Origin: Elusimicrobiota bacterium
GTDB taxonomy: Bacteria > Elusimicrobiota > Elusimicrobia > UBA1565
Length of the DNA stretch: 64,000 nt
Reading direction: 5' to 3'
Assembly (NCBI GenBank): GCA_041660925.1
Contig: JBAZVI010000003.1
Coordinates: 93,832 to 157,831 of the forward strand
Positions 81 through 47,793 of this stretch are shown in pieces. How positions within the stretch are numbered: the stretch's first letter is position 1; the number at the start of each line of letters is the position of its first letter. A program made the position numbers and the translations under genes. The notes beneath the pieces are model-generated. The model made no database searches. It was not told the origin of the DNA and saw only the letters and a list, made by a program, of their open reading frames with translations.

Positions 81-746
81 CTAGGGGACTTCGACGGTCT
101 GCTTCTTCGTGAGGTGGCGCTTGCCGTGGGCGTCGATGGCTTCGAACCGGTAGGCATAGGGGCTGCCGGACTTCAGGTAGACCGTCAGGCGCCATTCGCC
201 GGAGGAGTCCTTGAACATCGGCTTGCGGCCGTTGGTGCGGACGAGGAACGGACCGAGGAGGTAGACCTCCTTGGCCCCGGCGTCGGCATACGAGAAATCG
301 ACGGGTTTGGAGACCCCTCCGGCCGGACGGGCCGAGGCGCCGTTCGCCGGCTCGGCGGCCGGGGCCGCCGCTTTGGGTGCGGGAGGCGCCGGCTTTGCGG
401 CCTCCTTCGCGGCGGGGGTCTTCGAAGTCTTCGCGGGCTCCTTCTTCGTTTCGGGCGCGGCGGGCTTCGTCTCCTGCGGGGACTCCTCCTTCGCGGGAGT
501 CTTGGCTTCGGGGGCCGCGGCGGCGGGCTTGGCCGGCGTCCGGGCGACGACGAGCGGAGGCTGCGAGAGGTGACGGATCCGGGCGTAGAGGCCGCCGGCG
601 CAGAGCAGGAGGACGAGACCGATGACGGCGAGTAGGCCGCCCCAGAGGGTGCGGCTGCCGCCGTGCGCGGGACGGAGCGGGACGGTGTCCGCCGTCCCCG
701 TCTCGCGGGGAGGTTCGTTCTTCACGCCGAAGGGATCGAAGGCCAC
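81..746 (-). CDS. membrane-anchored protein with Pro/Ala/Lys-rich linker and C-terminal CBM48 / AMPK-beta glycogen-binding-like (E-set) domain
   Basis: Single N-terminal TM helix, low-complexity PAKE linker, C-terminal segment KEVYLLGPF...W....YAYRF matching the AMPK-beta/CBM48 pattern. Lies 10 nt downstream of the coiled-coil gene. Confidence 0.6.
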   Translation of the reverse strand: MAFDPFGVKNEPPRETGTADTVPLRPAHGGSRTLWGGLLAVIGLVLLLCAGGLYARIRHLSQPPLVVARTPAKPAAAAPEAKTPAKEESPQETKPAAPETKKEPAKTSKTPAAKEAAKPAPPAPKAAAPAAEPANGASARPAGGVSKPVDFSYADAGAKEVYLLGPFLVRTNGRKPMFKDSSGEWRLTVYLKSGSPYAYRFEAIDAHGKRHLTKKQTVEVP

Positions 747-755
747 GACGCGATT

Positions 756-3608
756 CTAGTCCATCCCGCCGTCGGGTGTCAATGTCGCGGAGGCCCGCCG
801 CCAGGGGAGAGGGCGCAGCCGCCAGAGAGGACGGGCGTGGAGCTGGTAGACGCCGTCGCGGCTGAACCAGAGCGTCTCCCCCCGCCAGGCGAGGGCGGAG
901 AGCGGCGCGGCGTCGTCGGGCAGAGGCGCGCGCAGGTCCGCGGAGGAGCTCCCCGCGGGGTCCGTCGGCGAACGCAGGCGCCCCGCGGCGTCGGCGGCCC
1001 AGAGGGCGCCGTCGCGCTGCGCGAGCGCGGCCGGCGCCAGTGCGAGGGGACGCTCCTCGAGCGGCGTGAGCGCGTCGTCGAGGGCTCGGCGGCGCAGGAC
1101 CCGGTCGGCGGCGTCGGCGACCCAGAGGTCGCGGCCGTCGTAGACGACGGCGCTCGGGCGCGAGCCGCCGGCCGGCCAGGAGCGCTCGGGCAGCAACGCG
1201 CCGTCCTGGACGCGCATGCGCGAGAGCGCCCGCGCGTCGGCGTCGAGCACGAAGACGGTCCCGTTCGCGCGGGTGAATCCGCTCAGGCGGACGCCCTGCA
1301 CCGGGAAGCGGGCCTCGGAGACCATCCCCTCCGGCGAGAGGTGCAGCCGGTAGAGGGCGTTCTCGGAAGCGTCGGCGACCCAGAGGACGTCCCCCTCCCA
1401 GAGCATGGCGGTCGGGTGCGAGAAAGGCACGGCGTAGTCCGCGCCCTGGAGCCCGAGGGCCCGGACGGCGGCGGCGGCGAGGCCGGCGGCGAGCGCGAGG
1501 ACGGCGAAGCGGCGCAGCCAGCGCCGCGGACGGTCCTCGGCGTCGACGTCGGGGAGCACCCCGTCCGGCGAAGGGGGCCGGCGCGCGAGCTCGGCTTTCA
1601 GTTCGGAGACCTGGCGGCGCAGGCGCGCGATCTCCGTTTCGGCCTCGTGCTTCTGGACGGCGAAGAGCTTCGAGTAGCCTCGGCGGGCCTCCTCGACCTG
1701 CTCGACGGTCTCGCGCAGGCGCTCGTTGCTGCGCTCGAGGAAGAAGCGCTCGACGCCGTGCAGCGCCTCCTCGAACTTCGCCAGGTCCTCGCGTCGGATG
1801 TTCGTCTGCTCCTCGAGCAGGGCCGCGCGCTCGACCTCGAAGCCTCCGCGCGCGGCGGCGAGCTCGGCGCGCAGGGCGGCGGACTCTTCGTCGCCGGCGC
1901 GGCGCATCTCCGTCTCTCGCGCGCGGTGCGACGCGTCGAGCGCGCGCAGGGCCTCGTCCTGGGACTCGAGCATCCTGCGCGTGCGCTCCGCGAAGGTCTT
2001 CTCGAGGCTTTGGAAGGCGACGGCGTGAGAGGCGGCGGCGGCCTCGCGCTCCTTCTCGATCTCCACGGAGATGGCGCGGCGCTCGGCGCGGAAATCCTCG
2101 CGCTGGCGGCGCAGCTCCTCGGCGAAGCGGTCGAGTTCGGCCCGATGGGCGTCGCGCAGGCGCGCGAGCTCCGCGGCGCCGGCCCCCTCGCGCTCGCCGG
2201 CGGCGGTGCGCAGCGAGTCGGCCAGGCGGCGGGCTTCCTCGGCCCGGTCCCCGAGCTCGCGCTCGTGGCGTTCGCGCATCGCGGAGAGCTCCGCACCGAG
2301 GCGGCCGGCGCGCTCGTCGTGCTCCTCGCGCAGGCGGCGCAGCTCGAGGGAGTGCTCCTCGCGCAGCCCGTTCTCCCGCTCCTCGGCGCGGCGCAGGAGC
2401 TCCGCCTCGCGCTCCTCGACGCGGCGTTGGAACTCCCCCGAGAGGGAGGCCTGGTCGACGAGGACCCGCTGCTGCCAGGAGGAGAGCTGTCCGCGCAGCG
2501 CGTCGAGGTCCGCGGCGTGGCGGTCCTCCTGGCGGCGGCGAAGTTCGGCCTGCTCGGCGAGGACGCGCTCGCGCTCGGCGGCGAGGACGTCCCCCTGCCG
2601 GGAGAGGTCGGCCTTCAGAGCGGAGATCTCCCCGGCCAGCCGGACGGCGACCCCCTCGGACTCGAGACGGAGGGCTTCGATGCGCGCGTGGAGATCGGAG
2701 CGCTCGCGCGCGAAGGCTTCCTCGGCTTTCCGGACGGCCGCTTCCTCCCGGGAGGCGGCGGCCGCCTCGGCGTCCGCGAGCGCCTGCCGGAGTTCGGCGA
2801 AGCGGTCCGCGCGGAGGGACAGCTCGGCCTCGAGCTGCCGCTTCTCGCCTTCGATGCCCGCGCGCAGCGCGGCGTGCAGGTCCCGCTCGCGCGCGAGCGC
2901 GAGGTCGTGCTCCTCCTGCAGGCGCGCGCGCAGGCGTCCCAGATCCTCCTCGAAGGCCGCGCGGCGGCGCGCGGTCTCCTGCTCGAGGAGCAGGGCCTTC
3001 TGGTGGGACTGGTCGGACTGCAGCCGGATCTCGGCGAGGGCGTCCTCGCGCGCGCGCTCGGCCTTGGCGCGCTCGGTCTCGACGGCCTCGCGCGCGGATT
3101 CCTCGCGGGCTTCGAGCTCCCCGTGATAGCGCGCCTGGGCTTCGGCGAGGGCGCGGGTGTAGGTGCCCTCCATCTCGGAGAGCATGCGGGCGTGGCCCTC
3201 GAGCTCGCGCTTGTGGGCCTCCTCCGCCTCGGCGAGGCGCTTTCGGACCTTCGCCTCGAGGACCTCCTGGGTCTTCTCGAGGTCCTGACGGCGACGGACG
3301 AACTCTTCGACCTGCAGCTCGCCCTTGAAGAGGCTGTTGAGGATGCCCTGCATCTCGGCGACGAAGCGTTCGCGCTCGGCCAGGCGCGTGAGGCGCTCGT
3401 CGACGGAAAGCCGGAAGCGCTCGAGCTCCTTGACCGCGTCCTCTCGTCCGAGGGCGGCGGCCTTGAGCAGCTCGCGCATCTCCCCCTGGCCGCTCTCGAG
3501 CATGCGCATGCGCTCGAGCGCCCAGCGCAGGGTCATGCGCGCGGTGTCGAGGTTGGCGACGCTGTCGAGCAGCTCTTCGGGGCCCTTCTCGGGCTGTTCA
3601 GCGCTCAT
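756..3608 (-). CDS. giant coiled-coil protein (about 660 aa of E/R/A/L-rich heptad-like sequence), one TM segment, C-terminal beta-propeller-like repeat domain
   Basis: 950-aa ORF. N-terminal two thirds is coiled-coil-like (SMC/myosin-tail-like composition). TM segment WLRRFAVLALAAGLAAAAV. C-terminal repeats with recurring LWVADA / ALWAADA motifs. Confidence 0.6.
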   Translation of the reverse strand: MSAEQPEKGPEELLDSVANLDTARMTLRWALERMRMLESGQGEMRELLKAAALGREDAVKELERFRLSVDERLTRLAERERFVAEMQGILNSLFKGELQVEEFVRRRQDLEKTQEVLEAKVRKRLAEAEEAHKRELEGHARMLSEMEGTYTRALAEAQARYHGELEAREESAREAVETERAKAERAREDALAEIRLQSDQSHQKALLLEQETARRRAAFEEDLGRLRARLQEEHDLALARERDLHAALRAGIEGEKRQLEAELSLRADRFAELRQALADAEAAAASREEAAVRKAEEAFARERSDLHARIEALRLESEGVAVRLAGEISALKADLSRQGDVLAAERERVLAEQAELRRRQEDRHAADLDALRGQLSSWQQRVLVDQASLSGEFQRRVEEREAELLRRAEERENGLREEHSLELRRLREEHDERAGRLGAELSAMRERHERELGDRAEEARRLADSLRTAAGEREGAGAAELARLRDAHRAELDRFAEELRRQREDFRAERRAISVEIEKEREAAAASHAVAFQSLEKTFAERTRRMLESQDEALRALDASHRARETEMRRAGDEESAALRAELAAARGGFEVERAALLEEQTNIRREDLAKFEEALHGVERFFLERSNERLRETVEQVEEARRGYSKLFAVQKHEAETEIARLRRQVSELKAELARRPPSPDGVLPDVDAEDRPRRWLRRFAVLALAAGLAAAAVRALGLQGADYAVPFSHPTAMLWEGDVLWVADASENALYRLHLSPEGMVSEARFPVQGVRLSGFTRANGTVFVLDADARALSRMRVQDGALLPERSWPAGGSRPSAVVYDGRDLWVADAADRVLRRRALDDALTPLEERPLALAPAALAQRDGALWAADAAGRLRSPTDPAGSSSADLRAPLPDDAAPLSALAWRGETLWFSRDGVYQLHARPLWRLRPLPWRRASATLTPDGGMD

Positions 3609-3800: not shown

Positions 3801-5525
3801 TTATGCCGACGGCTTCTTGTCCGAGTTCGAATAGCGGTAGTAGTAGTGATAGTCGCCGTAGTAGCGGCCGCCGCGTCCGGTGACCTGGTTGAGCACGGCC
3901 CCGGAGATGCGCAGGCCGCCTTCCTCGATCTTCTGGCGCGCGCGGCGCGCGAGCAGGGCGTGGGCTCCGCCGAACTTCGCGACGAAGACCGCGGCGTCGG
4001 CGTGCCGGCCCCAGAGGAGGGCGTCGGAGATGGGGAGGACGGGCGTCCCGTCGACGATGACGCGGTCGTAGCGTCCCCGGGCCCAGCCGATGAGGGCGTT
4101 CACGCGCGGGGTGCTCAGGAGTTCCGAGGGGTTCGGAGGGATGCGCCCGCACGGGAGCACGTCGAGATTGGCCACGCCCGAGGGGCGCACGAGGCCTTCG
4201 AGCTCGGAGACGTCCTTGCCGTGCGCGAGGAACCAGCTCACGCCGGACTCGTTGTTGACCGCGAAGCGCTTGTGCACGTTCGGCCGGCGCAGGTCGCCCT
4301 CGAGGAGCAGGACTTTCTCGCCGAGCTGCGCGAAGACGATGGCCAGGCTCATCGCGAGGAAGGTCTTCCCCTCCCCCTGCGTCGTGCTGGTGATGAGCAG
4401 GGTCTTGAGGTCCCTCCCCGCGCCGGCGAAGCCGAGCATCGTGCGGATGTTCCGCAGGGACTCCCCGGTGAAGGAGTCGGGCCCCGCGAGCACGTCGACG
4501 TAGGACTTCAAGGAGTCTCCCGCGAAGGTCGCGCGCGGTACGGCGCCGAGGAAGGGCAGGCCGAGCTTGCGCTCGACGTCCTCCTGCGAGCGCACGGTCT
4601 GGTCGAGGGCGTCGGCGCCGAGGGCGAGGAAGAAGCCCGCGAGCAGCCCGAGCAGCGCGGCGAGCGCGAGCGAACGCGCCTTGCGGGGCTTCGAGGGGGT
4701 TCGCGGGACCTCCGCCGGGTCGACGATGCGCACGTTGTTCCCGAGGAGCTGTCCCGAGAGCTCCGCTTTCATGCTCTGGACGATCTTCCCCGTCTCGTCC
4801 TGGATGCGGGAGCGCAGGGCCTCCATCTGGGACTTGAGGCGTATGACCTCGGGGTGCTCCGGGGTGTAGCGGCGCGAGAGGTCCCCCCAGCGCGCCTCGA
4901 GGCCGGCGTAGGAGGCCTTCAGCGTCTGGATGAGCTGGCTGTTGACGACGGCGGGCAGGGAGTCCGGGGAGACGTCGCGGGGGTCCTTCGCGGCGCCTCC
5001 GGGGTAGAGGGCGGCGAGGATCTCCTTGGAGATGAAGAGTTTGTTCTCGACGTTCTCCGCGACGAAGGAGGCGGCGACGGCGTTCGCGACGCCCGCGGCG
5101 AGCGCCGGGTCGTGGGATTCGACGGTCACGTTCACGAGGCGGCTGCGGCGCACCGGAGAGATCGCGACGGCGCGCTCGAGCGCCTCGACGCCGGAAGAGA
5201 AGTCCTCGGCCTTGGAGAGCGCGAGGTTCTGGTGGACCTTGCGCAGGAGACTTCGGCTCTTGAGCAGGCGGTACTGGGTCTGGTAGTAGTCGTCGTCGCT
5301 CGCCTCCACCATCGCGCCCTCGCTGTAGACCGGGGCGCGCCGCTCCTTCTCGATGAGGAGCAGGGCGGAGGCGGAGTAGACGGGGCGCGCCGTGAAGACG
5401 TAGAGGAGCGCGCCGAGGGTCGAGACGAGGAAGGCCGAGAGCACCACCCAGCGGCGGCGCACGAGGACCTGGAGATAGCTGGCGAGGTCGATGTCCGGGG
5501 CGTTCTCGGCGGGCTGCTCGTCCAT
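3801..5525 (-). CDS. wzc: polysaccharide co-polymerase / BY-family tyrosine autokinase (Wzc/GumC-like chain-length determinant plus tyrosine kinase)
   Basis: N-terminal Wzz-like region with a TM helix. Walker A motif TSTTQGEGKT. C-terminal Tyr cluster YYGDYHYYYRY. Confidence 0.85.
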   Translation of the reverse strand: MDEQPAENAPDIDLASYLQVLVRRRWVVLSAFLVSTLGALLYVFTARPVYSASALLLIEKERRAPVYSEGAMVEASDDDYYQTQYRLLKSRSLLRKVHQNLALSKAEDFSSGVEALERAVAISPVRRSRLVNVTVESHDPALAAGVANAVAASFVAENVENKLFISKEILAALYPGGAAKDPRDVSPDSLPAVVNSQLIQTLKASYAGLEARWGDLSRRYTPEHPEVIRLKSQMEALRSRIQDETGKIVQSMKAELSGQLLGNNVRIVDPAEVPRTPSKPRKARSLALAALLGLLAGFFLALGADALDQTVRSQEDVERKLGLPFLGAVPRATFAGDSLKSYVDVLAGPDSFTGESLRNIRTMLGFAGAGRDLKTLLITSTTQGEGKTFLAMSLAIVFAQLGEKVLLLEGDLRRPNVHKRFAVNNESGVSWFLAHGKDVSELEGLVRPSGVANLDVLPCGRIPPNPSELLSTPRVNALIGWARGRYDRVIVDGTPVLPISDALLWGRHADAAVFVAKFGGAHALLARRARQKIEEGGLRISGAVLNQVTGRGGRYYGDYHYYYRYSNSDKKPSA

Positions 5526-5545
5526 GGGGTCCTCCGGGAGAGCCC

Positions 5546-6799
5546 TTAGAAGAGGCTCTCCGGGATGATGACGACGTCGTTGGGCTGGAGGCGCAGGTCT
5601 TTGCTCTTGTCCCCGCGTTTGGTGATGGCCGTGATCTCGATGAGCAGGGTCTCGCTTCGGCCGTTGACGTTGCGGACGATGCGCGTGCGGTCGACGGCGG
5701 CGTAGGGCGTGAAGCCGCCGGCGAGCGTGACGGCCTCCAGGACCGTGAGCGGGGCCTCGGTGGGCAGCGGGTAGGAGCCGGGGTTCTTGACCTCTCCGAG
5801 GACGTAGACCTGCTTGTTGCCGTATTCCTGGATGAAGACGGAGACCTGGGGGTCGACGAGGTAGCGCTTGAGCTTCGCGAGCACCGCGGCCTCGGCCTCG
5901 GCGACCGTCAGGCCGGCCACCTTCACGGCTCCCGCCAGCGGCAGGGTGATGCCCCCCTCCGGGCTCACGCGGACTTTCCGGTCGAGGTCCTTCTCCTGAT
6001 AGACCGTGATCTCGAGCAGGTCGGCGGGACCGACGCGGTAGGAGGTCTGCTTCTGCTGGACGAACTGGAGGGCGTTCTTGAGCGCGGCCTCCTCGGCCTG
6101 TTCTCGCCGGACGCCCTTGGGAGCGGCGGGCTTGTCGGCGGCCGGTGCGGCGGCGTCCGTCGCGGGCGGGACGGCGGCCGAGGCCGCCTTCGCCTCGGCG
6201 TCCTCGGAGGACGGGACGCGGACGCTCACGCAGCCGGCGAGCGGCAGGAGGCCGGCGAGCAGGAGCAGCGCGGAGAAGCGGCGCAGCACGCCCGTCCAGG
6301 AGCCCCGGGACTTGAGGATGAGCTCGGCGACTTCGCGCACTGCGCCGTGCCCCCCGGGACGGCGGGTGACGAGATGGGCGAAGCGCCGGACCTCGGCGCG
6401 GGCGTTGGGGACGCAGACCGCGAGGCCGGCGCGGCGCAGTACGGGGACATCGGGGAGGTCGTCGCCGATGAAAGCCGCCTGCGAGGCCTTCAGGCCCGTC
6501 CGGCGCAGGATGTCCTCGAAGGCCGGGAGCTTCTCGAAGGTCCCGAGGACCACGTGGCGCATGCGCAGCATCTTCGCTCGGCCGACCACCCCTTCGGACT
6601 TGCGGCCGCTGATGAGGCCCGTCTCGACGCCGTTCTCCGAGAGCCAGATGAGGGCGATGCCGTCCTGGCTGTCGAAGCCCTTGAGCTCGACGAGCTTCCC
6701 GTCGCCGCCGCCGAAATGGAAGAGCCGGCCGTCGGTGAGCACGCCGTCGACGTCCATCAGCAGGAGGCGGATGCGTCGGGCGCGCTCGCGGAGGGTCAT
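5546..6799 (-). CDS. single ORF fusing KdsC-like HAD phosphatase (N-terminal, ~170 aa) to Wza-like polysaccharide export lipoprotein (Poly_export/SLBB) with an internal lipobox
   Basis: N-terminal DVDGVLTDG...GDDLPD HAD/KdsC motifs. Mid-protein LLLLAGLLPLAGC signal-anchor/lipobox. C-terminal Wza-like export domain. No in-frame stop between the parts. Confidence 0.7.
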   Translation of the reverse strand: MTLRERARRIRLLLMDVDGVLTDGRLFHFGGGDGKLVELKGFDSQDGIALIWLSENGVETGLISGRKSEGVVGRAKMLRMRHVVLGTFEKLPAFEDILRRTGLKASQAAFIGDDLPDVPVLRRAGLAVCVPNARAEVRRFAHLVTRRPGGHGAVREVAELILKSRGSWTGVLRRFSALLLLAGLLPLAGCVSVRVPSSEDAEAKAASAAVPPATDAAAPAADKPAAPKGVRREQAEEAALKNALQFVQQKQTSYRVGPADLLEITVYQEKDLDRKVRVSPEGGITLPLAGAVKVAGLTVAEAEAAVLAKLKRYLVDPQVSVFIQEYGNKQVYVLGEVKNPGSYPLPTEAPLTVLEAVTLAGGFTPYAAVDRTRIVRNVNGRSETLLIEITAITKRGDKSKDLRLQPNDVVIIPESLF

Positions 6800-8892: not shown

Positions 8893-9318
8893 ATGAAGCC
8901 GATGGACCGACTCATCGCCGTCGTGGACCGCCTGCGCGGACCGGGCGGCTGCCCCTGGGACCGCGCCCAGGACCACCGCTCCCTCATCCGCTACCTGCGC
9001 GAGGAGACCCGGGAGCTCGAGCACGCCCTGCGCCGGGGCGAGTGGCACGAGATCGAGGAGGAGCTCGGCGACGTGCTCCTGCAGGTGCTCCTGCACGCGC
9101 GCATCGAGTCGGAGAAGGGGCGCTTCAGCATACAGGACGTCGCCCGCGCGCAGGCGCTCAAGCTGGTTCGCCGGCACCCCCACGTGTTCGGCGGCCGCGC
9201 CCGCGTGCGGACCGCCGGCGAGGTCCTCGCCATCTGGCAGGACGTCAAGACGCGCGAAAAGACCCTCCGCCGCCGCGACGTCCGGCGGCGCGCGGTCCGC
9301 AAGCGCACGTCTCAGTAG
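8893..9318 (+). CDS. mazG: MazG-family nucleotide pyrophosphohydrolase (small single-domain type)
   Basis: RGPGGCPWDRAQDHRSL...EEL.DVLLQV motifs. Start among ATGs at 8845-8902 is uncertain. A-T rich TATGATAT -10-like box at about 8872. Confidence 0.8.
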   Translation: MKPMDRLIAVVDRLRGPGGCPWDRAQDHRSLIRYLREETRELEHALRRGEWHEIEEELGDVLLQVLLHARIESEKGRFSIQDVARAQALKLVRRHPHVFGGRARVRTAGEVLAIWQDVKTREKTLRRRDVRRRAVRKRTSQ

Positions 9319-11486
9319 CGGAGATTCCCGAGTTCCGTTCCGGGGTAGTAGGCCTGCAGGATCTCGGCGTAGGTCTGTCCGTACTCCGCGCGGCCCATCG
9401 CGCCGGACTGGCACATCCCCACGCCGTGCCCCCACCCCCCGCCGTAGAAGGTGAAGACCTTCGGCTTGCCGTCCTTGCCGTACTCGGTGTCCACCACGAA
9501 GAGTCCGGAGCGCTGGGAGCCGTCGCCGAGGAGGCCGCGGATGGCGATCTCCTTGGTGACGACCTTCGTCGCTTTCGAGCCCCGGACCGCCACCGCGTTG
9601 AGGTGGCCCGAGCGCGAGCGCGTGAGCGTGCGGACGGCGAGCAGCTTGCCGACCTTCAGGGTACGGTTGATGTGCTCCTCGAGGTCTTCGGCGGTGATGA
9701 CGCGCGTCCAGCGGAAGTGCGAGGGGTGCACGTAGCTCGAGCCGCGGCAGAAGGCGCTCGGCCGCGAGCGCAGCCACAGGCGCAGGGTCCAGGGCGAGTA
9801 GGGACGCTCGATCGCGCCGGGAGCGTCGAGGACGCCCTTCCAGTACGGCACGTCCCCCCAGCCCTGGAGCTCCTTGCCGCTTTGGGTGTGCCCGCCGCAG
9901 TTGGAGGCGTAGAGGACGTGCGCGATGCGGCCTCCGTAGGCGGCGACGCGTCCGCGCGTGGCCTCGACGACGGCGCGCGAGCGCGCGTTCTCGTTGCGCA
10001 CGCCCCAGTACACCTGGCAGTGCTGGCCGTCGCAGATGTCGAAGCCGTCCCTGGCGTGGCGCTTGGTGACGGTCTTGATGAAGAGCGCGTGACTGCGCGC
10101 GACGACGGCCTGGGCCTTGAGCGCCTCCATCGGCGAGCCGATGGGCATCTCGGAGGCGAGCACCCCGTGGGTATAGCTCTCGAGGTCGACGACGTTGACG
10201 AGGCTCAGGCCGCGGCGCATGAGGGCGACCTCGATCTCTCCGCGCAGGGGCCGGTCGCCCCCGCCGCGGGAGGAGGAGCCGTAGTCGGCGGGGACGTCGC
10301 GCAGGACCGTGACGCCGCCGGACGCGGCGTCGGGGCGGATGCGCAGGGAGCGGCTCGAGACGGCGCGTCGATGCCCGTTCTCGTCGAAGATTTCGATGCG
10401 CGAGGCCTTCTTCCCCGGGCGGATCTTCCAGGTCTCCCCGCGCGGCCCGGAGACGAGGAGCTTCCCGGTCTTCCCCTCGATGATGTTGAAGGCCCGGGTG
10501 CAGCGGAAGGCGAGCTCGCGCCGCGGCAGCGGCTTCCCCAGCCCGCTCGTGCCCAGCCCGACCCGGAGCACGGGGAGGCGGCCGACCGGCGGCAGCGGCG
10601 GCCCCAGCGGTTCGGCCTCCGCGCTCGTCTTCGGGGCCCCGCCGTTGGGGCGGGGTGCGTCCTCGGGCTCGGGCCGCGAGGATTCGATCGCGCGCTTGCT
10701 CACCCCGGCCAGCATTCCGCGGAACTTGCGGTTGCGGGGGTCGCTGTCCTGCAGGTGCATGACCTGCTTCCAGGCCTCGTAGAAGCGGTTCGAGCGCAGG
10801 TAGGCGCGTCCGAGCTGGTAGCGGGCGGTCGTGAAGTAGGAGTCCTTCTGCACGGCCCGCCGGTAGGCCTCGATGGAGCCGTCGCGGTCGCCGGCCGTCT
10901 CGCGCGCCTTCCCGAGCCAGTAGTGCGCCAGCGAGAGCTCGGGGGCGGTCTCGGCGGCCGTCTCGAGCGCGGCGGCGGCCTTGCGCGGCTCCCCGAGCGT
11001 GAGCCAGGCCCGCCCGCGCGCGATGAAGGCGTAGGGGTCGGGCGGGGCGTTGGAGATGAAGGCGTCGAGGACCTCGAGGGTGCGCGTGGCGCGCCCGAGG
11101 CGGAACTCGGCCTCCGCGAGCGCGGTGCGGACCTCCTGGTCCTGCGGCGCGAGCTCGAGCGCCTCGGCGAACCATTCGGCCGAGCGCCGGGCGTCGCCGA
11201 TCTCCGCCTGCACGATGGCGCCGTTGACCCAGGCCTCGAGGTTCTTCGGGTCGGCGCGCACGGCCTTCAGGTAGTTCTCGAGGGCCTTCGGATGGTCTCC
11301 GGTGTAGTAAAGCCGGTGCCCCTCGAGGACGTTCGTCTGGGGCAGGGGGCCGGGCGCCTGCGCCGGCGAGAGCGGCGCCGCCGAGAGGTGGAAGAGGTAC
11401 GCGCACGCCAGCACGCCCGCGATATGTCGCACTCGCGCGAGAGTATACCCGCGCGCTGTTAAATTACTGTGGCGAGCGCCGCTCAT
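9312..11486 (-). CDS. TPR-repeat protein with C-terminal SpoIID/LytB (amidase enhancer) domain
   Basis: N-terminal TPR repeats. C-terminal DGFDICDGQHCQVY and SpoIID-like motifs. Possible GTG start at 11429 giving a signal peptide. Confidence 0.8.
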   Translation of the reverse strand: MSGARHSNLTARGYTLARVRHIAGVLACAYLFHLSAAPLSPAQAPGPLPQTNVLEGHRLYYTGDHPKALENYLKAVRADPKNLEAWVNGAIVQAEIGDARRSAEWFAEALELAPQDQEVRTALAEAEFRLGRATRTLEVLDAFISNAPPDPYAFIARGRAWLTLGEPRKAAAALETAAETAPELSLAHYWLGKARETAGDRDGSIEAYRRAVQKDSYFTTARYQLGRAYLRSNRFYEAWKQVMHLQDSDPRNRKFRGMLAGVSKRAIESSRPEPEDAPRPNGGAPKTSAEAEPLGPPLPPVGRLPVLRVGLGTSGLGKPLPRRELAFRCTRAFNIIEGKTGKLLVSGPRGETWKIRPGKKASRIEIFDENGHRRAVSSRSLRIRPDAASGGVTVLRDVPADYGSSSRGGGDRPLRGEIEVALMRRGLSLVNVVDLESYTHGVLASEMPIGSPMEALKAQAVVARSHALFIKTVTKRHARDGFDICDGQHCQVYWGVRNENARSRAVVEATRGRVAAYGGRIAHVLYASNCGGHTQSGKELQGWGDVPYWKGVLDAPGAIERPYSPWTLRLWLRSRPSAFCRGSSYVHPSHFRWTRVITAEDLEEHINRTLKVGKLLAVRTLTRSRSGHLNAVAVRGSKATKVVTKEIAIRGLLGDGSQRSGLFVVDTEYGKDGKPKVFTFYGGGWGHGVGMCQSGAMGRAEYGQTYAEILQAYYPGTELGNLRY

Positions 11487-20799: not shown

Positions 20800-21774
20800 T
20801 CAGAAGCGGTAGGTGAAAGCGAAGCGGTGGGCCTGGCCGAGCACGCCGTAGGGGGCCCAGGCGTAGTCGAAGCCCCCCCCGGCCAGGCGGGCGCCGAAGC
20901 CGAAGGAGAAGCCGGTGATGCCGTCGAGGTCCGACATCATCGTGCGGCCCGACCAGCCGGCGCGCACGAAGGCCGTGGCGTCGGTGAAGGGCCAGGAGGT
21001 CTCGCTGCCCACGTTCGCGTAAGGGCGGCCGTCGCTCGGACCGACGGCGTCCACGGCGAGCAGCCAGTTGCGCATGAGCCGCAGGGACTGGCCGAAGCGG
21101 AGCACGGTCGGCAGCTGCTCGGTCTTCTCGCGATAGCGCAGGCGCCCTCCGAAGTTGCTTCCCGAGAAGGCGGCGACGTAGGGCCACTGGTCGCCGAGCA
21201 GGGTGTGCCAGCGCAGGCCGGCGTCGGCGGCGCCCGAGCGCGCGGAGCGCGTGATCCGGGAGTCGATGAACTTGATCGCGATGCCGGCGTCGAGGTGTTC
21301 GCTCAGGGACGCTCCCCAGCCGGCCATGACCGCCAGGTCGTAGGGTTTGACCGACCCGCCGGTCGCGGTGCCCGAGTTGTCCATCTCCGGGATGTCTCCG
21401 GCGCTGAGGTAGAGCGCTCCGAGGGCGAGCGTCCCCAGCCCGCTGGGCCGGAACTCGCGCCGGCGCGGGGCGGCGGCGGGACTCAGCGGACAGGCGAAGA
21501 CGGCCAGGTCCGCGTAGAGGGACTGATAGAGGAAGGCGTGCGAGAGCAGGACCTCGCGCTTCTCGAGCGCGGCCAGTCCGGCCGGGTTCCAGTAGAGGGC
21601 CGAGGCGTCCTCCGCCGCCGCGCCGACGGCCTCTCCCATGCCCGCCGAGCGCGCGTCCGCGCCGAGCTTGAGGAACTGCCCCGTCGCCGTGCCCGCCGAG
21701 CTCGAATCGAAGGCGGCCCGCGCCTCCGGGACCGGGGCGAGCGCGAGGAGGACGGCGAGGAGGAGGACTCTCAT
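20800..21774 (-). CDS. outer-membrane beta-barrel protein of the PorV/UPF0164-like family (YWNPAGLA motif), paralog 1
   Basis: Signal peptide MRVLLLAVLLALAPVPEARA. Conserved YWNPAGLA motif. Ends ...FTYRF (aromatic C-terminus typical of OMPs). Lies directly downstream of the CTD-bearing giant protein. Confidence 0.6.
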   Translation of the reverse strand: MRVLLLAVLLALAPVPEARAAFDSSSAGTATGQFLKLGADARSAGMGEAVGAAAEDASALYWNPAGLAALEKREVLLSHAFLYQSLYADLAVFACPLSPAAAPRRREFRPSGLGTLALGALYLSAGDIPEMDNSGTATGGSVKPYDLAVMAGWGASLSEHLDAGIAIKFIDSRITRSARSGAADAGLRWHTLLGDQWPYVAAFSGSNFGGRLRYREKTEQLPTVLRFGQSLRLMRNWLLAVDAVGPSDGRPYANVGSETSWPFTDATAFVRAGWSGRTMMSDLDGITGFSFGFGARLAGGGFDYAWAPYGVLGQAHRFAFTYRF

Positions 21775-24700
21775 CGTTCGATGACGAGCTTGAGGACGGT
21801 CGACGACCCGCCTTGCGAGGACTTCACGTAGGCGAAGTAGACGCCGCTGGCGCACTCGCGGCCCGCTCGGTTGCGTCCGTCCCACACCACGGTGCCCACG
21901 TTCGCGGCGGAGAAGGGGACGTCGGCCACGAACTCGGCGGCGAGATTGAAGATCTTGATGGCTCCCTCGGTGGGGAGGTTGTCGAAGATGATGCCGCTCT
22001 TGCCGAGGAAGGAGGCCGAGTCGAAGCGGCCGGCGCTGCCCGGCTGCCAGGGGATGGGGTAGACGCGGACCTGGTCCGTGTTCGGGCGGATGCCGCTGGG
22101 GCCGAAGACCGCGAAGACGGAGAAGTGGGGGGTCTGCCCGAGGACGCGTCTGTTGGCGAGGTCCACCGAGGTGGGCAGCGCGGTCCAGCGCACGACCGTC
22201 TCATCGAGCGTGTACATCCTCAGACCGGCGGCCGGGATGGGCGGGATCGTGTTGTCGATGAGGCCGTTCCCGTCGTCGTCCGTATAGGGGAGGGAGACGG
22301 TGACGGTCGACGCGAAGTTCCCGGTGAGCGGGAGCCCCCCCACGCTCGCGACCAGTTCGACGAGCGTCCCGGGGATGAGCGCCTGCCCGGTCGGCGGGGC
22401 GGAGAGGGCCGAGAGCACGGTCGCCGCGGAGGCCTGGATGGGCGCCGCGGACGGGTCGGCGGAGGCGTAGATGTCCGCGGGACCGCCGAAGGTGTCGGGC
22501 GGGATGATGAGATGCGTCGAGGCGTTGGGCCAGGGAAGGGAGAGTTCCGAGGACCTGCTCGCAGTCCATGAGGCGGCGACTTCCGACGCGGTCATGGCGC
22601 GTCCGGCGAGATTGACCTCGTCGATGAGGCCGTTGAAGGGGCTGTCGTAACCGGCGGCGAGCGGCTGGCGGGCGCCGATCGAGACGAGGTGGGCGTCGTT
22701 GTAGCGCGCCGCGGGGATTCCGACGCTGTTGACGGCGGAGAGGGTGCCGTCGACGTAGATGCGCAGCGTGCGCGCCGCCGCGTCGTAGACGCCGGCCAGG
22801 TGCGTCCACTGTCCGACCCGGATGGACTGCGTCGAGCTGACCTGATAGAGCCCGAGTCCGGCGTCGCGCAGGAAGAAGCGCCACTTCCCGGCGGTGATGA
22901 CGAGCGCGAAGGACTCCTTCGTCCCCTCTCCTTTGGCGACGAGGCCGGCGTCGGCGACCTGATTGACGTTCTCGGGGTTCACCCATGCCTGCACCGTCAG
23001 CGAGCCGGTCCCGGCCAGGTTCGCCGCGTGCGGCACGCGGCAGTAGGTGTTGGGGATCCCGCTGAAGCGGACGGCCTTCCCGAGCCCGGTCTGCCCCGTC
23101 GTGTAGGTCGGCGTCGAACAGGCGACGAAGGTGCAGGTCAGCTGCCCGTCGTTGGCCAGGCCCGAGGCGTCGACCGCCTTCGTGCCTCCGCCCTCGTCGA
23201 AGTGCCAGGTCCCTAGGGCTCCGGCGATGGGGGCGTAGGGCGTCTGGGGCGTCGACGCGGAGGAGACGATGATCGAGGCGGCGGTCTGCTGGGTGACGAC
23301 CGCCGTCGGCGCCGTCGCCACGCCGTTGCCGTTGACGGCGCGGGCGCGCAGGGCGTAGTTGGTCGCGGGGAGCAGGCCGCTGAGGGTCAGGTTGGTCGCC
23401 GACACCGAGTAGGTGGAGACGCGGCCGGAGAAGCCCGCATCGGTCGTCAGGAAGACCTCGTAGAGGGTCGCGGCGGGCGGGTTCCCGCTGCCGGACCAAC
23501 TCACGGAGATCGTGTTGGAGGTGACCGCCGTGATGCTCAGCGGGCCCGGCGCGGCGGCCAGCGTGTAGATGCGCGCCTCGGCGCCGTCCGGCCCGACGCC
23601 GGAGGCGTTGCGCACCCGCAGGGTCGCGCCGTACTCCGTGTTCTGCGAGAGGCCTCCCTGGTCGAAGAGCGTCCCGGCGGTCGTGGTGAGGGTCCCCAAT
23701 CCGGTCCCGACCAGCGTGTAGTCGAGCGCGCTCGGGGAGGCGGTCCAGCTCCAGCGGATGGAGGTGAGCCCCTGCGCCAGGCCGACGAGACCGTTCTGGA
23801 TCCCGAAGGTCGGGACCGTCGTGCTCGCGAAGGCGGTGAAGACCTCCCCGAGGGTGTTCCCGTCGGAGGCGTTTCCGTTGAAGGCGCGCACGCGCAGGTA
23901 GTACGTCGTCTGCGGGGAGAGGGAGACCACGGCCTTCGAGAGCCCGGTGTAGTTGGCCGTCGTCGGGACCGGGCTCGAACGGAGGGTGGCGAAGTTGTTG
24001 AGCGAGTCGCTGAGCTCCCAGCGCGTGTAGCCGGGGTTGCCGTTGTCCCCCCACGTGACGACGAGGCTGCCGGTCGAGACGAAGGACGCCCCGAAGGCCG
24101 CCGGCGGGTTGGCCCAGGTGTAGACGCTCGTCGGCGCGGAGAGGGAGCTCTCCCCGTACATCGTGACCGCGCTGATGCGCCGGCAGTTCAGCGAGTTCGG
24201 CCCGTAGCCGGCCTCCGGGTAGCTGAGGCCTCCGAGGCCCGAGGCGATGGGAACGCCGCTCAGGCACGAGTAGAATCGGTAGGTCCCTCCCGTGCAGAGA
24301 CCCGGAGAGGCGGACCAGTTCCAGGTGATGCCGGTCGCGGAGGTCGGCGTCCCCGAGAAGCCCCCCGGCTGCGAGGGCGGCGCCGTCTGCACGTTGATGA
24401 CGCGGTCCTGCTGGATGGTGTTCCCCGAGCGGTCCTGGAAGGTGAAGCGGATGTAGTTGTTCCCGGAGCGCAGGGGCACCGCCGCGGCGGTATAGGTGTG
24501 CTTCGCGACCGAGCCGTTGGAGCCGGCGGGCGAGTAGTCTCCGCCCGCGATATAGCGCGTCGTGAAGGGACCGTTCGAGCTCGTGGAGGAGTACTTGAAC
24601 TGCCCGGCATAGTAGTCGTTGGCGACGCCCTCGGCCCCGAGCGCGGCGGTGAGGACGCGTACCTCGTCGATATATCCGTAGAAGGTGTATCCCCCGCCCG

Positions 24701-25484
24701 TCGGGCGGTGGCCCACGTAGAGGTCCCCGTCCACCCGCAGCGGCAGCATCTCCGGGATGACGGTCTCCCCCACCTTCACGTCGTTGACGTAGACGCGCAG
24801 GATCTTGTTCATGCCCGAGTTGCCGAGGGTCATGGTGACGAGGTTCCAGGCGTTCTGCGTCATGACCGCGTAGCTCGTCGAGGAGAGGTGGTTCACGCCG
24901 TCGCTGCTGATGGCGTTGGCGTAGATGTTCCCGGCGGTGCCGACGCTGTGCCAGAGGAGGACGCCGACGTTCGTGCCGTCGTTGAACTCGAGGATGGGGC
25001 GCTGGGTGAGATCCTGCGGGTAGACCCACGCCTGGAGCGTGAGTTGGTCGGTGGCGCTGGCCAGCGTCGCGGACCGGAGGGCGCGCACGTACTCGGGATT
25101 CACGTTGGGCCAGGCGCCCGCCTGGGAGAAGTTCGCCTGCGAGGCGACGTAGGTGACGCCGGCGGTCTTCTCGGTGCTCTGCGGGGCGCTCCGGTCGTCG
25201 GCGATGCTGTTGTCGAAGTGCATCATCAGGACGGTGGGCGTCAGCGCGGAGGCGCCGGCCAGGTGCGGCTGGGCGCCCACGCGCAGGCCCCCTCCCGTGT
25301 CCTGGACGTCGATCTGGAAGCTCGGCGTCCCCGTCGAGGTGAGGCTGGACAGGGAGTAGGTCCCGTTGCAGCTCGTGAGCTGGAAGTTGGAGAGGGCCGG
25401 GAGCGCGTCGTCGGCGGCGGCGGCGGGAGCGGCGGCGGCGAGCCGCAGCAGCGCGAGCAGGAGCGCGGGCAGGAAACTCCTCAC
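21771..25484 (-). CDS. 1237-aa secreted cell-surface protein: signal peptide, 2x LamG/ConA-like lectin domains, about 4 FN3-like domains, C-terminal T9SS-type sorting domain (Por_Secre_tail-like)
   Basis: LTLQAWVYPQD and LTVQAWVNPEN LamG_3-like cores. FN3-like repeats. C-terminus VRVYPIPW...VVWDGRNRAGRECASGVYFAYVKS...KLVIER matches the T9SS CTD consensus. Confidence 0.85.
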   Translation of the reverse strand: MRSFLPALLLALLRLAAAAPAAAADDALPALSNFQLTSCNGTYSLSSLTSTGTPSFQIDVQDTGGGLRVGAQPHLAGASALTPTVLMMHFDNSIADDRSAPQSTEKTAGVTYVASQANFSQAGAWPNVNPEYVRALRSATLASATDQLTLQAWVYPQDLTQRPILEFNDGTNVGVLLWHSVGTAGNIYANAISSDGVNHLSSTSYAVMTQNAWNLVTMTLGNSGMNKILRVYVNDVKVGETVIPEMLPLRVDGDLYVGHRPTGGGYTFYGYIDEVRVLTAALGAEGVANDYYAGQFKYSSTSSNGPFTTRYIAGGDYSPAGSNGSVAKHTYTAAAVPLRSGNNYIRFTFQDRSGNTIQQDRVINVQTAPPSQPGGFSGTPTSATGITWNWSASPGLCTGGTYRFYSCLSGVPIASGLGGLSYPEAGYGPNSLNCRRISAVTMYGESSLSAPTSVYTWANPPAAFGASFVSTGSLVVTWGDNGNPGYTRWELSDSLNNFATLRSSPVPTTANYTGLSKAVVSLSPQTTYYLRVRAFNGNASDGNTLGEVFTAFASTTVPTFGIQNGLVGLAQGLTSIRWSWTASPSALDYTLVGTGLGTLTTTAGTLFDQGGLSQNTEYGATLRVRNASGVGPDGAEARIYTLAAAPGPLSITAVTSNTISVSWSGSGNPPAATLYEVFLTTDAGFSGRVSTYSVSATNLTLSGLLPATNYALRARAVNGNGVATAPTAVVTQQTAASIIVSSASTPQTPYAPIAGALGTWHFDEGGGTKAVDASGLANDGQLTCTFVACSTPTYTTGQTGLGKAVRFSGIPNTYCRVPHAANLAGTGSLTVQAWVNPENVNQVADAGLVAKGEGTKESFALVITAGKWRFFLRDAGLGLYQVSSTQSIRVGQWTHLAGVYDAAARTLRIYVDGTLSAVNSVGIPAARYNDAHLVSIGARQPLAAGYDSPFNGLIDEVNLAGRAMTASEVAASWTASRSSELSLPWPNASTHLIIPPDTFGGPADIYASADPSAAPIQASAATVLSALSAPPTGQALIPGTLVELVASVGGLPLTGNFASTVTVSLPYTDDDGNGLIDNTIPPIPAAGLRMYTLDETVVRWTALPTSVDLANRRVLGQTPHFSVFAVFGPSGIRPNTDQVRVYPIPWQPGSAGRFDSASFLGKSGIIFDNLPTEGAIKIFNLAAEFVADVPFSAANVGTVVWDGRNRAGRECASGVYFAYVKSSQGGSSTVLKLVIER

Positions 25485-36545: not shown

Positions 36546-38153
36546 TTAGAGCGGGATGTTCCCCCGGTTCGGGAGTTCTCCCGGCTTCCTTTTATCGGCC
36601 AGGAATTGGAAGGCGCGGATGACCGTGTAGCGGATCTGCGTCGGCTCGATGACTTCGTCGACCGACCCGGTCGAGGCCGTCTGGTAGGGCGCTGCGAAGC
36701 GCTCCTCGTACTCTTTGGAGAGCTTGAGGCGCAGCCCGTCCTTGTCCTCCGCCGCGGAGATGTCGCGCGAGTAGAGGATCTCGATGGCCCCGCGCGGGCC
36801 CATGACCGCGATCTCGGCGCAGGGCAGCGCGTAGTTGAAGTCGCCGCGCATGAGCTTGGAGCTCATCGCGATGTAGGCGCCGCCGTAGGCCTTGCGCAGG
36901 ACGACGGTCACCTTCGGCACCGTCGCTTCGGCGTAGGCGTGCAGCAGCTTCGCGCCGTGGCGGATGATGCCGGCGTGCTCCTGCTCGACGCCCGGCCAGT
37001 AGCCGGGGACGTCGACGAGGGTCAGGATGGGGATGTTGAAAGCGTTGAGGAAGCGGATGAAGCGCGCGGCCTTGTCGGAGGAGTCGATGTCGAGCGCGCC
37101 GGCCTTGTGGGCCGGGTTGTTCGCGATGACGCCGACGACCTCCCCCCCGAGGCGGATGAAGCCCACGACGATGTTCTTGGCGAACTCCGCGTGGATCTCG
37201 TAGAACTTGTGCTCGTCGGCGATCTGCCAGACGACGTGGTGCACGCGGTAGGGCTTGCGCGGGTCCACTTCGCAGAGGGCCTCGAGGACGGGCGTCGTGC
37301 GCCGGATGGGGTCCGGGCTGGGGACGTGCGGCGGCTTCTCGAAGCGGCTCTGCGGGAGGTAGCTGACGAGCTCCTTGATCTGGCGGAAGCAGTCCTGCTC
37401 GGAGGCGGCGACCACGTGGCAGACGCCGGACTTCGAGGAGTGCGGCTTCGAGCCGCCGAGGTCGTCGAAGGTCACGACCTCCCCGGTCGCCGCCTTCACG
37501 ACGTCGGGACCGGTCACGAACATGTGGCTGATGCCGTCGACCATGAACACGAAGTCCGTCAGGGCCGGGGAGTAGACGGCCCCGCCCGCGCACGGCCCGA
37601 GGATGACGGAGATCTGCGGGATGACGCCCGAGCACTTCACGTTCCGATAGAAGATCTCTCCGTAGCCGTCGAGCGAGTCCACGCCTTCCTGGATGCGCGC
37701 CCCGCCCGAGTCGAGCAGGCCGATGAGCGGCACGCGGTTCTCGTAGGCGAGGTCCATGACGCGGCAGATCTTCTTGGCCTGCTCGAGCCCGAGCGAGCCC
37801 CCGAGCACCGTGAAGTCCTGGGAGAAGACCGCGACCTCGCGGCCGTTGATGCGGCCGAAGCCGGTGATGGCGCCGTCGCCGGGGATGTCCTTCTCGCGCA
37901 GTCCGAAGTCGTTGCAGCGGGTCTTCACGAGGAGCCCGATCTCCTGGAAGCTCCCCTCGTCGAGGAGGTAGTGGATGCGCTCGCGGGCGGTGAGCTTGCC
38001 TTTCTTCTTCTGGGCTTCGATGCGCTTGGGGTCGCCGCCGGCGCGGGCCTTCTCGACGAGCTCGCGCATGCGTCCCACGTTCGTGGGGACCATGCGGTGC
38101 TTCTTCGGGGCCTTCTGGACCGGGGTCGGGGGAGTGCTCTCGGGGGCGTTCAT
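36546..38153 (-). CDS. pccB: acyl-CoA carboxylase carboxyltransferase beta subunit (propionyl-CoA carboxylase beta / methylmalonyl-CoA carboxyltransferase family)
   Basis: 535 aa. Characteristic GGAYIAMSS, VPGYWPG, and duplicated crotonase-fold CT domains. Confidence 0.9.
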   Translation of the reverse strand: MNAPESTPPTPVQKAPKKHRMVPTNVGRMRELVEKARAGGDPKRIEAQKKKGKLTARERIHYLLDEGSFQEIGLLVKTRCNDFGLREKDIPGDGAITGFGRINGREVAVFSQDFTVLGGSLGLEQAKKICRVMDLAYENRVPLIGLLDSGGARIQEGVDSLDGYGEIFYRNVKCSGVIPQISVILGPCAGGAVYSPALTDFVFMVDGISHMFVTGPDVVKAATGEVVTFDDLGGSKPHSSKSGVCHVVAASEQDCFRQIKELVSYLPQSRFEKPPHVPSPDPIRRTTPVLEALCEVDPRKPYRVHHVVWQIADEHKFYEIHAEFAKNIVVGFIRLGGEVVGVIANNPAHKAGALDIDSSDKAARFIRFLNAFNIPILTLVDVPGYWPGVEQEHAGIIRHGAKLLHAYAEATVPKVTVVLRKAYGGAYIAMSSKLMRGDFNYALPCAEIAVMGPRGAIEILYSRDISAAEDKDGLRLKLSKEYEERFAAPYQTASTGSVDEVIEPTQIRYTVIRAFQFLADKRKPGELPNRGNIPL

Positions 38154-38991
38154 GGTCGGCCTTCCGTGCTCGTGTAGGCGATGCTCAGGGTCTCCTCGCC
38201 GCGGAGGAGGGTCTCGAATCGGATCTCGGGGCTGCCGAGCGCTTCCCAGCGGGCCCGCGCGCGATTGTGCAATTCGAGCCGCAGGTCGTCGAGGCGCGGG
38301 CAGTTCTCCTTTCGCATCGCCCCGGACGCGCTCTGGGAAGCGGACGGGGGCTCCACTCGGCTCGCCCCTGCGGCGCCCCGCGAAGCGGGGGCAGGGTCCG
38401 ACGCAGGGGCCAGCTGCAGATCAGGAACGAAGCGCACGTCCCAGAGGTCCACCGAGAGGCCGAGGGTCAGGAGCTTGAGCACGGCCTCCTTCAGCGTCCA
38501 CAGGCGCGTCTGCGCCTGCGGGGTGTCGAGCGCGGGGCGCTCGCTGGGGTGCGCGAAGATGGTGAGGAACGACTGCGGGCGTTCGGCGACGCGCTCGACG
38601 TCCACGCCGACGCGGCCGTTGGCGGGAGCGGCCGCGGCGACGGCCCCGCCCGGTCCGTGGGAGATGGACAGGAACGGGGCGCCGGCTTCGGGGTCGCCGG
38701 GCAGCGCCGCGTAGGGCGAGCCGTCGCGGCGGTTGAGGATGGCCACCTCGCAGAGGCGGTCGGAGCGCCCCTTCTCGGCGAGAAGCGCGCAGACCAAGCG
38801 CTTGGCCGCGAGGCGGCCGGAGAGCCAGTCCTTGCGGCGCTTGGGCACCTTGAACGCCGCGAGCTGCGCGAGCTCCGCGGCGCCGAGCTGCTCCGAGAGG
38901 TCTTCTCCCCCCTCGTAGCGCTCGGCCCAGCGCGCGGCTTCCTCAGGGCTCAGGCGCAGGAGGCGGCAGGGTCCGACGCGTTCGGTGAGGC

Positions 38992-38995
<4 letters not shown>
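38150..38995 (-). CDS. Sfp/HetI/PfaE-type 4'-phosphopantetheinyl transferase
   Basis: DWLSGRLAAKRL, GVDVE and WTLKEAVLK motifs. Its ATG overlaps the megasynthase stop (ATGA). Confidence 0.85.

Positions 38996-47793
<8,798 letters not shown>

Follow-up and report, generated by a model that had tools for sequence, protein, structure and literature searches.

A large secreted protein with a type IX-like tail and a PorV/PorQ-family barrel encoded by overlapping genes form a conserved pair in Elusimicrobiota

Surveys of type IX secretion systems (T9SSs) restrict these systems to Bacteroidota or to the Fibrobacterota–Chlorobiota–Bacteroidota (FCB) group (PMC4793230, PMC11205867). A locus in a 64-kb stretch of DNA (hereafter the window) from a metagenome-assembled genome of Elusimicrobiota, a phylum that the NCBI taxonomy does not place in the FCB group, raises the question of what a large protein with a type IX-like C-terminal tail and an adjacent PorV-like barrel do together in such a host. 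The locus occupies 20800..25484 on the minus strand of the window, where reading of the open reading frames (ORFs) gave two genes, encoding a 1237-amino acid (aa) protein (the cargo) and then a 324-aa barrel, with boundaries that agree with gene calls based on GC content at third codon positions (GC3). The first-pass annotation, made from the sequence alone, had suggested a dedicated T9SS-type pair in a host outside classical Bacteroidota; the placement of the host is correct and extends to the FCB group as a whole. The spacing that it gave is wrong: the barrel gene does not start 3 nucleotides (nt) downstream of the cargo gene, as its ATG and the stop codon of the cargo gene overlap by 4 nt (cgATGAga). 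Because of this ATGA overlap, the two genes are translationally coupled. At the family level, both products are already known from automatic annotation, in which NCBI names them 'LamG-like jellyroll fold domain-containing protein' (cargo) and 'PorV/PorQ family protein' (barrel). What is new is the conserved one-to-one (1:1) tail/barrel module, its adaptor domain, and the radiation of this module in a phylum outside the FCB group. With moderate confidence, we read the two genes as a cognate, private cargo/anchor pair of the PorZ–PorQ or SprB–SprF kind, and not as a cargo served by a general PorV shuttle, because the tail resembles those of PorZ and PorU, the genes occur 1:1 and overlap, the module has spread like a cassette over different passengers, and few orphan tails are found.

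The pairing was followed in a sample of loci obtained by scanning with a barrel profile, one genome per species, which yielded 80 loci, about 24 of them from Elusimicrobiota. The remaining loci are mostly from FCB-group or allied lineages (Ignavibacteria, Calditrichota, Zixibacteria, Krumholzibacteriia, Eisenbacteria, Marinimicrobia, Cloacimonadota, and Bacteroidota). With a tail hidden Markov model (HMM) built from these loci, 24 of the 26 tail-bearing proteins in the Elusimicrobiota loci were found to be directly followed by a barrel gene on the same strand, compared with 33/74 in the other phyla; counted from the barrels, 24/27 and 33/63, respectively, lie directly after a gene for a tail-bearing protein. 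Unpaired tail-bearing proteins occur at 0.57 per 100 kb of flanking sequence in Elusimicrobiota and at 4.75 in the other phyla. In one of the two Elusimicrobiota exceptions (locus L008), a barrel gene is adjacent but convergent. The dedicated pair proposed in the first-pass annotation is thus a conserved arrangement in this phylum. Over many phyla, adjacency is kept in 57 tail/barrel pairs, and the distances between tails are correlated with those between barrels (r 0.77 for the 57 pairs and 0.70 within Elusimicrobiota; Mantel p 0.001), a correlation that fits co-inheritance as a cassette and is no proof of binding.

In Elusimicrobiota, tail and barrel are inherited together over passengers of at least three unrelated families plus singletons, i.e. 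LamG/FN3 proteins, NHL propellers, FN3-rich proteins, CARDB/Big_5 proteins, and Kelch proteins, and the tail-bearing proteins range from 365 to 3098 aa. Orthologs of the cargo itself (38–49% identity) were found only in Elusimicrobia. Most of the Elusimicrobiota barrels form one clade apart from the FCB-group barrels in a neighbour-joining tree, and no other neighbour gene is conserved in the Elusimicrobiota loci.

The cargo ends in VYPIPWQPG...VVWDGRNRAGRECASGVYFAYVKSSQGGSSTVLKLVIER, as quoted in the first-pass annotation. This tail aligns to the last 87 positions (669–755 of 757) of the PorZ model NF052228, with an E value of 1.5e-10. A structure of the last 259 residues of the cargo was modelled, in which the tail has a predicted local distance difference test score (pLDDT) of 80–94. 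The best Foldseek match of the modelled tail in the PDB is PorZ (5m11, E 1.5e-5), followed by PorU (6za2), the C-terminal domain (CTD) of NucA (8glk_D; template modelling (TM) score 0.70 on the target), and the CTD of RgpB (7pq4); 8glk_D is the NucA tail as bound in the translocon, and FlgD ranks below all four. A full HMMER scan (phmmer) of 1.84 billion representative sequences gave 1826 relatives of the tail at E≤0.001; among the 150 relatives listed, in proteins of 72–4065 aa, the match lies nearly always at the C-terminus or within a few residues of it. Full-length matches to the home-made tail HMM, in proteins of 76–3098 aa, all extend to the final residue. A search of a 5.8-billion-protein index with the tail alone returned one protein, the word prefilter of that index being too weak for a 105-aa query. 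By sequence and modelled fold, the tail is a true but divergent member of the type IX tail-domain superfamily, and the tails closest to it, those of PorZ and PorU, are known to be retained and not cleaved.

The possibility that the tail matches only a generic Ig-like fold had been raised as well, and a reading of the two genes as chance neighbours, with a generic Ig- or FlgD-like domain functionally unlinked to the barrel, would draw on the scores of the tail, which lie below the threshold of every curated sorting-domain model and are about equal for FlgD_ig (18.8 bits, cut-off 27). The significant match to the PorZ tail and the ranking of type IX tails above FlgD in both sequence and fold argue against it, as does the adjacency of the 57 pairs together with the 4-nt overlap in the window, and we consider a chance association extremely improbable. 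Nor does the tail belong to the type B tails, as its score against CHU_C (PF13585) is 17.3 bits, below the cut-off of 27.

The barrel matches the PorV/PorQ family model NF033709 with 144.9 bits (cut-off 90), residues 31–324 aligning to positions 3–326 of 326, and also passes the PorV model PF19572 (31.7 bits, cut-off 27). It fails each of the ortholog models, namely the PorV equivalog NF033710 (68.6 bits against 250, with only the N-terminal two-thirds aligned), the PorQ equivalog NF033711 (80.5 against 220, slightly above the PorV score), and the PorV2 model (44.9 against 325). There was no match to the PorP/SprF family TIGR03519, and the match to Toluene_X (PF03349) is sub-threshold (19.2 against 29.7) and limited to residues 40–78. 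An AlphaFold model based on an alignment of 37 homologs (pLDDT 87.2, predicted TM score 0.83) is closest to Flavobacterium johnsoniae PorV in the translocon structures 8gl6_F and 6h3i_F (TM 0.70 and 0.68, respectively; E 2e-12), with the transporters FadL, TodX, and TbuX next (TM about 0.55). PorV is likewise the best PDB match of the barrel family profile (E 4.4e-30). By sequence and modelled fold, the barrel is therefore a true member of the PorV/PorQ family, and judged by the ortholog models it is not a PorV ortholog; the barrels tested from Elusimicrobiota and FCB-group loci all reach the generic family cut-off only. The barrel carries the signal peptide MRVLLLAVLLALAPVPEARA and the motif LYWNPAGLA at residues 60–68, in which W62, N63, P64, and A65 are invariant or nearly so in the family alignment. 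The FadL mutants N33A, P34A, and delta-NPA are among the structural matches of the barrel, and its WNPAG corresponds to the NPA motif of FadL, which we take to be linked to the FadL hatch. Because of this correspondence, the motif alone cannot tell PorV from FadL.

A close parallel to such a pair is PorZ–PorQ of Porphyromonas gingivalis. The tails of PorU and PorZ are kept, and the two proteins are anchored via PorV and PorQ, respectively (PMC12365241); it has been proposed that cognate PorV-like barrels shield such tails from cleavage (PMC10202324). In PorZ–PorQ, as proposed here, a retained type-A-like tail sits on a barrel of the PorV/PorQ family (PMC12365241, PMC10202324). The likeness extends to the tail of the cargo, for which PorZ is the best match in both sequence and fold, and to the barrel, for which the PorQ score slightly exceeds the PorV score. 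The window differs in that the barrel stays below the PorQ cut-off, the passenger consists of LamG and FN3 domains instead of the beta-propellers of PorZ, an extra pre-tail domain is present, and the host belongs to Elusimicrobiota, with many pairs per genome and not one. The porZ and porQ genes are presumably not adjacent in P. gingivalis, whereas the window genes overlap. Adjacency is shared with PorU–PorV of Bacteroidota, in which a large protein with a retained tail that is bound to PorV is encoded directly upstream of the barrel; PorV is also the closest solved structure to the barrel of the window. Unlike PorU, however, the cargo has no PorU or gingipain-type peptidase signature, and its barrel fails the PorV model. 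Type B tail proteins provide the third parallel: SprB and PG1035 are held at the cell surface by their own adjacent PorP/SprF-like barrels, with one barrel per cargo and an uncleaved tail bound non-covalently to a 14-stranded barrel of the FadL family (PMC9143113). This logic, including the gene adjacency, is the one that we propose for the window pair, although its tail is not of type B, its barrel lacks a TIGR03519 match, and the SprB–SprF and PG1035–PorP pairs depend on SprA.

On this model, the cargo would be exported by Sec, and its tail, probably together with the pre-tail domain, would serve as a handle for capture of the passenger. The passenger would then be held non-covalently on the outer face of the cognate barrel, as PorZ is on PorQ, PorU on PorV, and SprB on SprF, so that the barrel would serve as a private anchor or carrier, and the tail would be retained and not cleaved. 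The outer membrane might be crossed through an SprA-type translocon encoded elsewhere or by another route. Two LamG domains in the passenger suggest a role in adhesion or glycan binding.

The first-pass annotation had described the barrel as a PorV/LptO-like shuttle. Membership in the family stands, on NF033709, PF19572, and fold; orthology to PorV does not, and the 1:1 pairing is more in line with a cognate anchor than with a general shuttle. If the pair were part of a classical pathway, a full T9SS would be encoded elsewhere in the genome, the barrel would carry the cargo as a PorV-type shuttle from SprA to the PorU sortase, and the tail would be cleaved, with the cargo released or linked to lipopolysaccharide. 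The tail and barrel families are indeed those of T9SSs, and barrels of this kind are also found in FCB-group phyla, in which T9SSs are present. A general shuttle, however, does not need a barrel for each cargo, yet pairing is nearly complete in Elusimicrobiota, and unpaired tail-bearing proteins are about eight times rarer there than in the other phyla sampled, mostly of the FCB group. The low PorV ortholog score is a further argument, as is the upstream gene, which is not PorU either here or in relatives. No T9SS core gene (SprA/Sov, PorK/L/M/N (GldK–N), PorU, PorW/SprE, and PorT) was found among the ~54 genes of the window, essentially all of which were scanned, or in ~8 kb of flanking sequence (about 6 kb to the left and about 2 kb to the right) taken from Logan contigs of the same sample. 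None adjoins the pairs in the Elusimicrobiota loci. SprA-sized ORFs were also looked for in these loci, and the long ORFs without a tail encode only a histidine kinase, a coiled-coil protein, and a membrane protein. Our literature search found no paper tying Elusimicrobia to type IX secretion and no account of barrels of the PorV/PorQ family that are paired with tail-bearing proteins in phyla other than Bacteroidota. Together with the restriction of T9SSs in published surveys (PMC4793230, PMC11205867), these observations make the classical pathway a doubtful explanation of the locus.

Directly before the tail, the cargo contains a 148-aa pre-tail domain that has no Pfam or NCBIfam counterpart at E≤10. 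By jackhmmer, this domain was detected in 21 Elusimicrobiota cargo proteins with all passenger types, and never in FCB-group loci; its length across the Elusimicrobiota cargo proteins is about 100–148 aa. In all 21, it ends 91–122 residues from the C-terminus, directly before the tail. Part of the domain is modelled as beta strands, with a pLDDT of about 70–80. Because the pre-tail domain recurs beside the tail whatever the passenger, the conserved unit in Elusimicrobiota is the pre-tail domain, the tail, and the barrel.

Such a unit could also be self-contained. If the phylum lacks SprA, the barrel, with the beta-barrel assembly machinery or another helper, might both translocate and anchor its own cargo, following a logic like that of Slam/type XI or two-partner secretion, with the tail and pre-tail domain as the recognition signal. 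This would agree with the strict 1:1 pairing and the near absence of unpaired tail-bearing proteins in Elusimicrobiota, with a lineage-specific pre-tail domain that travels with tail and barrel, with the lack of any report of a T9SS for the phylum in the literature searched, and with the lack of a further conserved neighbour gene in the Elusimicrobiota loci. Against it, 14-stranded barrels of the FadL fold have an N-terminal plug, the motif of which is kept in the barrel of the window, and none of them is known to pass a folded protein of 130 kDa; export by the barrel itself is thus unlikely. As a tentative and somewhat broader possibility, to which we also assign a low probability, Elusimicrobiota may possess a minimal two-gene type IX-like display system, in which the barrel recognizes the pre-tail domain and tail and delivers and anchors the cargo without SprA or PorU, and which has radiated into many private pairs per genome. 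Such a system may represent an ancestral or a stripped-down form of the attachment step.

Relatives in the FCB group show a different arrangement. In about 30 FCB-group and allied loci (L015, L018, L026, L031–L033, L036, L041, L042, L048, L054, L055, L058, L062, L069, L070, L080, L082, and L083, among others), a TonB-dependent receptor-like gene (CarboxypepD_reg and Plug domains) is followed by the gene for a tail-bearing protein and then by a barrel gene. These trios share with the Elusimicrobiota pair the barrel family and the same kind of tail-bearing protein directly upstream of it. They differ from it in the link to a TonB receptor, in the absence of the pre-tail domain, in their separate barrel clade, and in having only one passenger family; the tail-bearing proteins of the trios constitute a single conserved family of 670–1250 aa without any Pfam domain. 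PorU and PorZ were considered as identities of the gene upstream of the FCB-group barrels and were both rejected: there is no NF033707 match and the match to the PorU tail in the PDB is weak (E 0.14), and NF052228 matches at the tail only. The trio looks like an uncharacterized surface complex linked to uptake.

An uptake complex might be considered for the window as well, in which the barrel would act as a channel of the FadL type that admits a small substrate, hydrophobic or derived from glycans, and the LamG protein would be its tail-tethered, substrate-capturing partner, so that the pair would serve import and not display. LamG domains often bind carbohydrate, the fold of the barrel is common to the transporters FadL, TodX, and TbuX, which also share its N-terminal plug with the NPA motif, there is the weak Toluene_X match, and in the trios a related barrel and tail-bearing protein lie directly downstream of a TonB-dependent receptor-like gene. 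PorV is nevertheless clearly a better match than FadL in both sequence and fold, and the FadL-type channels have no partner with a tail domain. No TonB-dependent receptor gene is linked to the pair in the Elusimicrobiota loci, and the passengers there (Kelch, NHL, CARDB, and FN3) are too diverse for one class of substrate. Import is thus very unlikely to be the function of the pair.

Several observations weigh against the reading of the two genes as a cognate cargo/anchor pair. The isolated tail scores 16.0 bits against TIGR04183, for which the cut-off is 23, and does not match PF18962 even at E≤10. The first-pass annotation had assigned the tail to the type IX consensus and had named these two models and PF19572 as the means of checking the pair; of the three, only the barrel model PF19572 is passed, and the assignment of the tail is upheld instead by the PorZ-tail match and the fold. 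The likeness of the barrel to PorQ rests on small score differences, with no ortholog cut-off reached. As the loci were chosen via the barrel, the share of barrels that have a partner is inflated; the share of tails that have a barrel is less affected. Plain co-inheritance of adjacent genes would also give the correlation between tail and barrel distances. Surface exposure of the cargo is assumed, and no translocon is known for the phylum. Lastly, the genome's third PorV/PorQ-family barrel has no gene for a tail-bearing protein upstream of it.

How PorV-like barrels capture and hold tail-bearing proteins is among the less understood steps of type IX secretion. In Elusimicrobiota, the tail-plus-barrel unit is found on its own outside the FCB group, with one barrel for one cargo, an extra adaptor domain, and diverse passengers. 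The pairs thus constitute a natural library of cognate and non-cognate combinations for the study of tail–barrel recognition, and with them it can be tested directly whether attachment is possible without the translocon. They also provide a rule for annotating hundreds of large surface proteins of Elusimicrobiota whose present names reflect their passenger domains only. If the phylum proves to have SprA, the significance is more modest: the range of T9SSs would be wider, and the idea of cognate carriers would be extended from type B to type-A-like tails.

The features of the locus and the third barrel are listed in Table 1. The cargo gene starts with GTG, and the signal peptide of its product is probably a Sec signal. 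The two lectin-like domains described in the first-pass annotation were both recovered, as Laminin_G_3 (PF13385) matches the cargo in two stretches with 160.1 bits (cut-off 27.6; E 5.6e-47). Between them lies the FN3 region, in which two domains are clear (residues 460–551 and 645–735; Pfam fn3 on residues 645–731, E 1e-15) and two weaker repeats lie between and before these. The genes around the pair have housekeeping functions (CCA-adding enzyme, acyl-CoA ligase, Mrp/ApbC ATPase, peroxiredoxin, aquaporin, and leucyl aminopeptidase). A promoter scan of the locus gave no promoter-like sites, and terminator-like sites are not more frequent there than in shuffled sequence.

Table 1. Features of the cargo and barrel genes and of a further barrel gene in the window
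Feature	Residues	Position in the window	Strand	Basis
Cargo gene, 1237-aa secreted multi-domain surface protein		21771..25484	-	GC3 0.95, codon-position GC pattern of a real gene; Pfam
Cargo signal peptide, VRSFLPALLLALLRLAAAAPAAAA	1–24	25413..25484	-	Read from sequence; Sec type inferred
LamG jelly-roll domain 1	123–293	24606..25118	-	Self-profile search; PF13385 in two stretches
FN3/Ig-like repeat region	372–735	23280..24371	-	Pfam fn3 and self-profile search
LamG jelly-roll domain 2	805–975	22560..23072	-	PF13385, best stretch 812–970; self-profile search
Pre-tail domain (148 aa), ending ...TPHFSVFAVFG	985–1132	22089..22532	-	jackhmmer; lineage-specific
C-terminal tail domain (CTD), Ig-like beta-sandwich, type IX type-A/PorZ-like	1133–1237	21774..22088	-	NF052228 match, Foldseek
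Barrel gene, 324-aa PorV/PorQ-family outer-membrane beta-barrel, FadL-type fold		20800..21774	-	NF033709, PF19572, AlphaFold model
YWNPAGLA motif of the barrel	61–68	21571..21594	-	Family alignment
Further PorV/PorQ-family barrel, paralog (the genome's third)		49235..50203	+	Home-made barrel HMM, E 3e-77; NF033709, 158.9 bits

A second pair from the same organism was found just beyond the left edge of the window, on a Logan contig of the same sample (L085, 3570..9825) whose sequence overlaps the left end of the window, and on the same strand as the main pair. It comprises a Kelch-repeat protein of 1743 aa that carries the same tail (E 8e-26, ending exactly at the C-terminus) and, 1 nt after the Kelch gene, a gene for a 340-aa PorV-family barrel (E 1e-94). 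Directly upstream of the Kelch pair, and on its strand, are two genes without annotation. The one at 756..3608 (minus strand) encodes a 950-aa protein that is coiled coil over about 700 aa and has a single membrane helix and a propeller-like end on the periplasmic side that weakly matches virginiamycin B lyase (E 3e-5); the other (81..746, minus strand) encodes 221 aa comprising a membrane helix, a spacer rich in Pro, Ala, and Lys, and a small beta domain with a weak GltJ match. Both have an envelope-spanning look, and they could belong with the Kelch pair.

In the third barrel gene, an intact signal peptide (ARLARILPLVALFFAAPARA) is encoded upstream of the methionine codon at 49433, and the frame contains no ATG, GTG, or TTG before this codon, so that translation probably starts at the CTG at 49235. 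This CTG overlaps the stop codon (49245–49247) of another gene (48144..49247, plus strand), whose 367-aa product may be the partner of this barrel; the product has a membrane helix at its N-terminus, a coiled coil, and a long region rich in Pro and Ala.

Other genes of the window include one for a 2933-aa synthase (38150..47793, minus strand) with two ketosynthase stretches, an acyltransferase, a ketoreductase, a dehydratase, and phosphopantetheine-carrier repeats, two of which were recognized as PP-binding stretches by Pfam and about four of which are visible in the sequence. Its layout resembles that of polyunsaturated fatty acid synthases, and it is followed by genes for a phosphopantetheinyl transferase and a carboxyl transferase. 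A polysaccharide export pair (3801..6799, minus strand) consists of a Wzc-like chain-length/tyrosine-kinase protein and a Wza-like exporter (Poly_export and SLBB domains) that has a HAD-hydrolase-like region at its N-terminus. A 700-aa protein (9312..11414, minus strand) combines many TPR repeats with a SpoIID (lytic transglycosylase-like) domain, which is unusual in a non-sporulating diderm.

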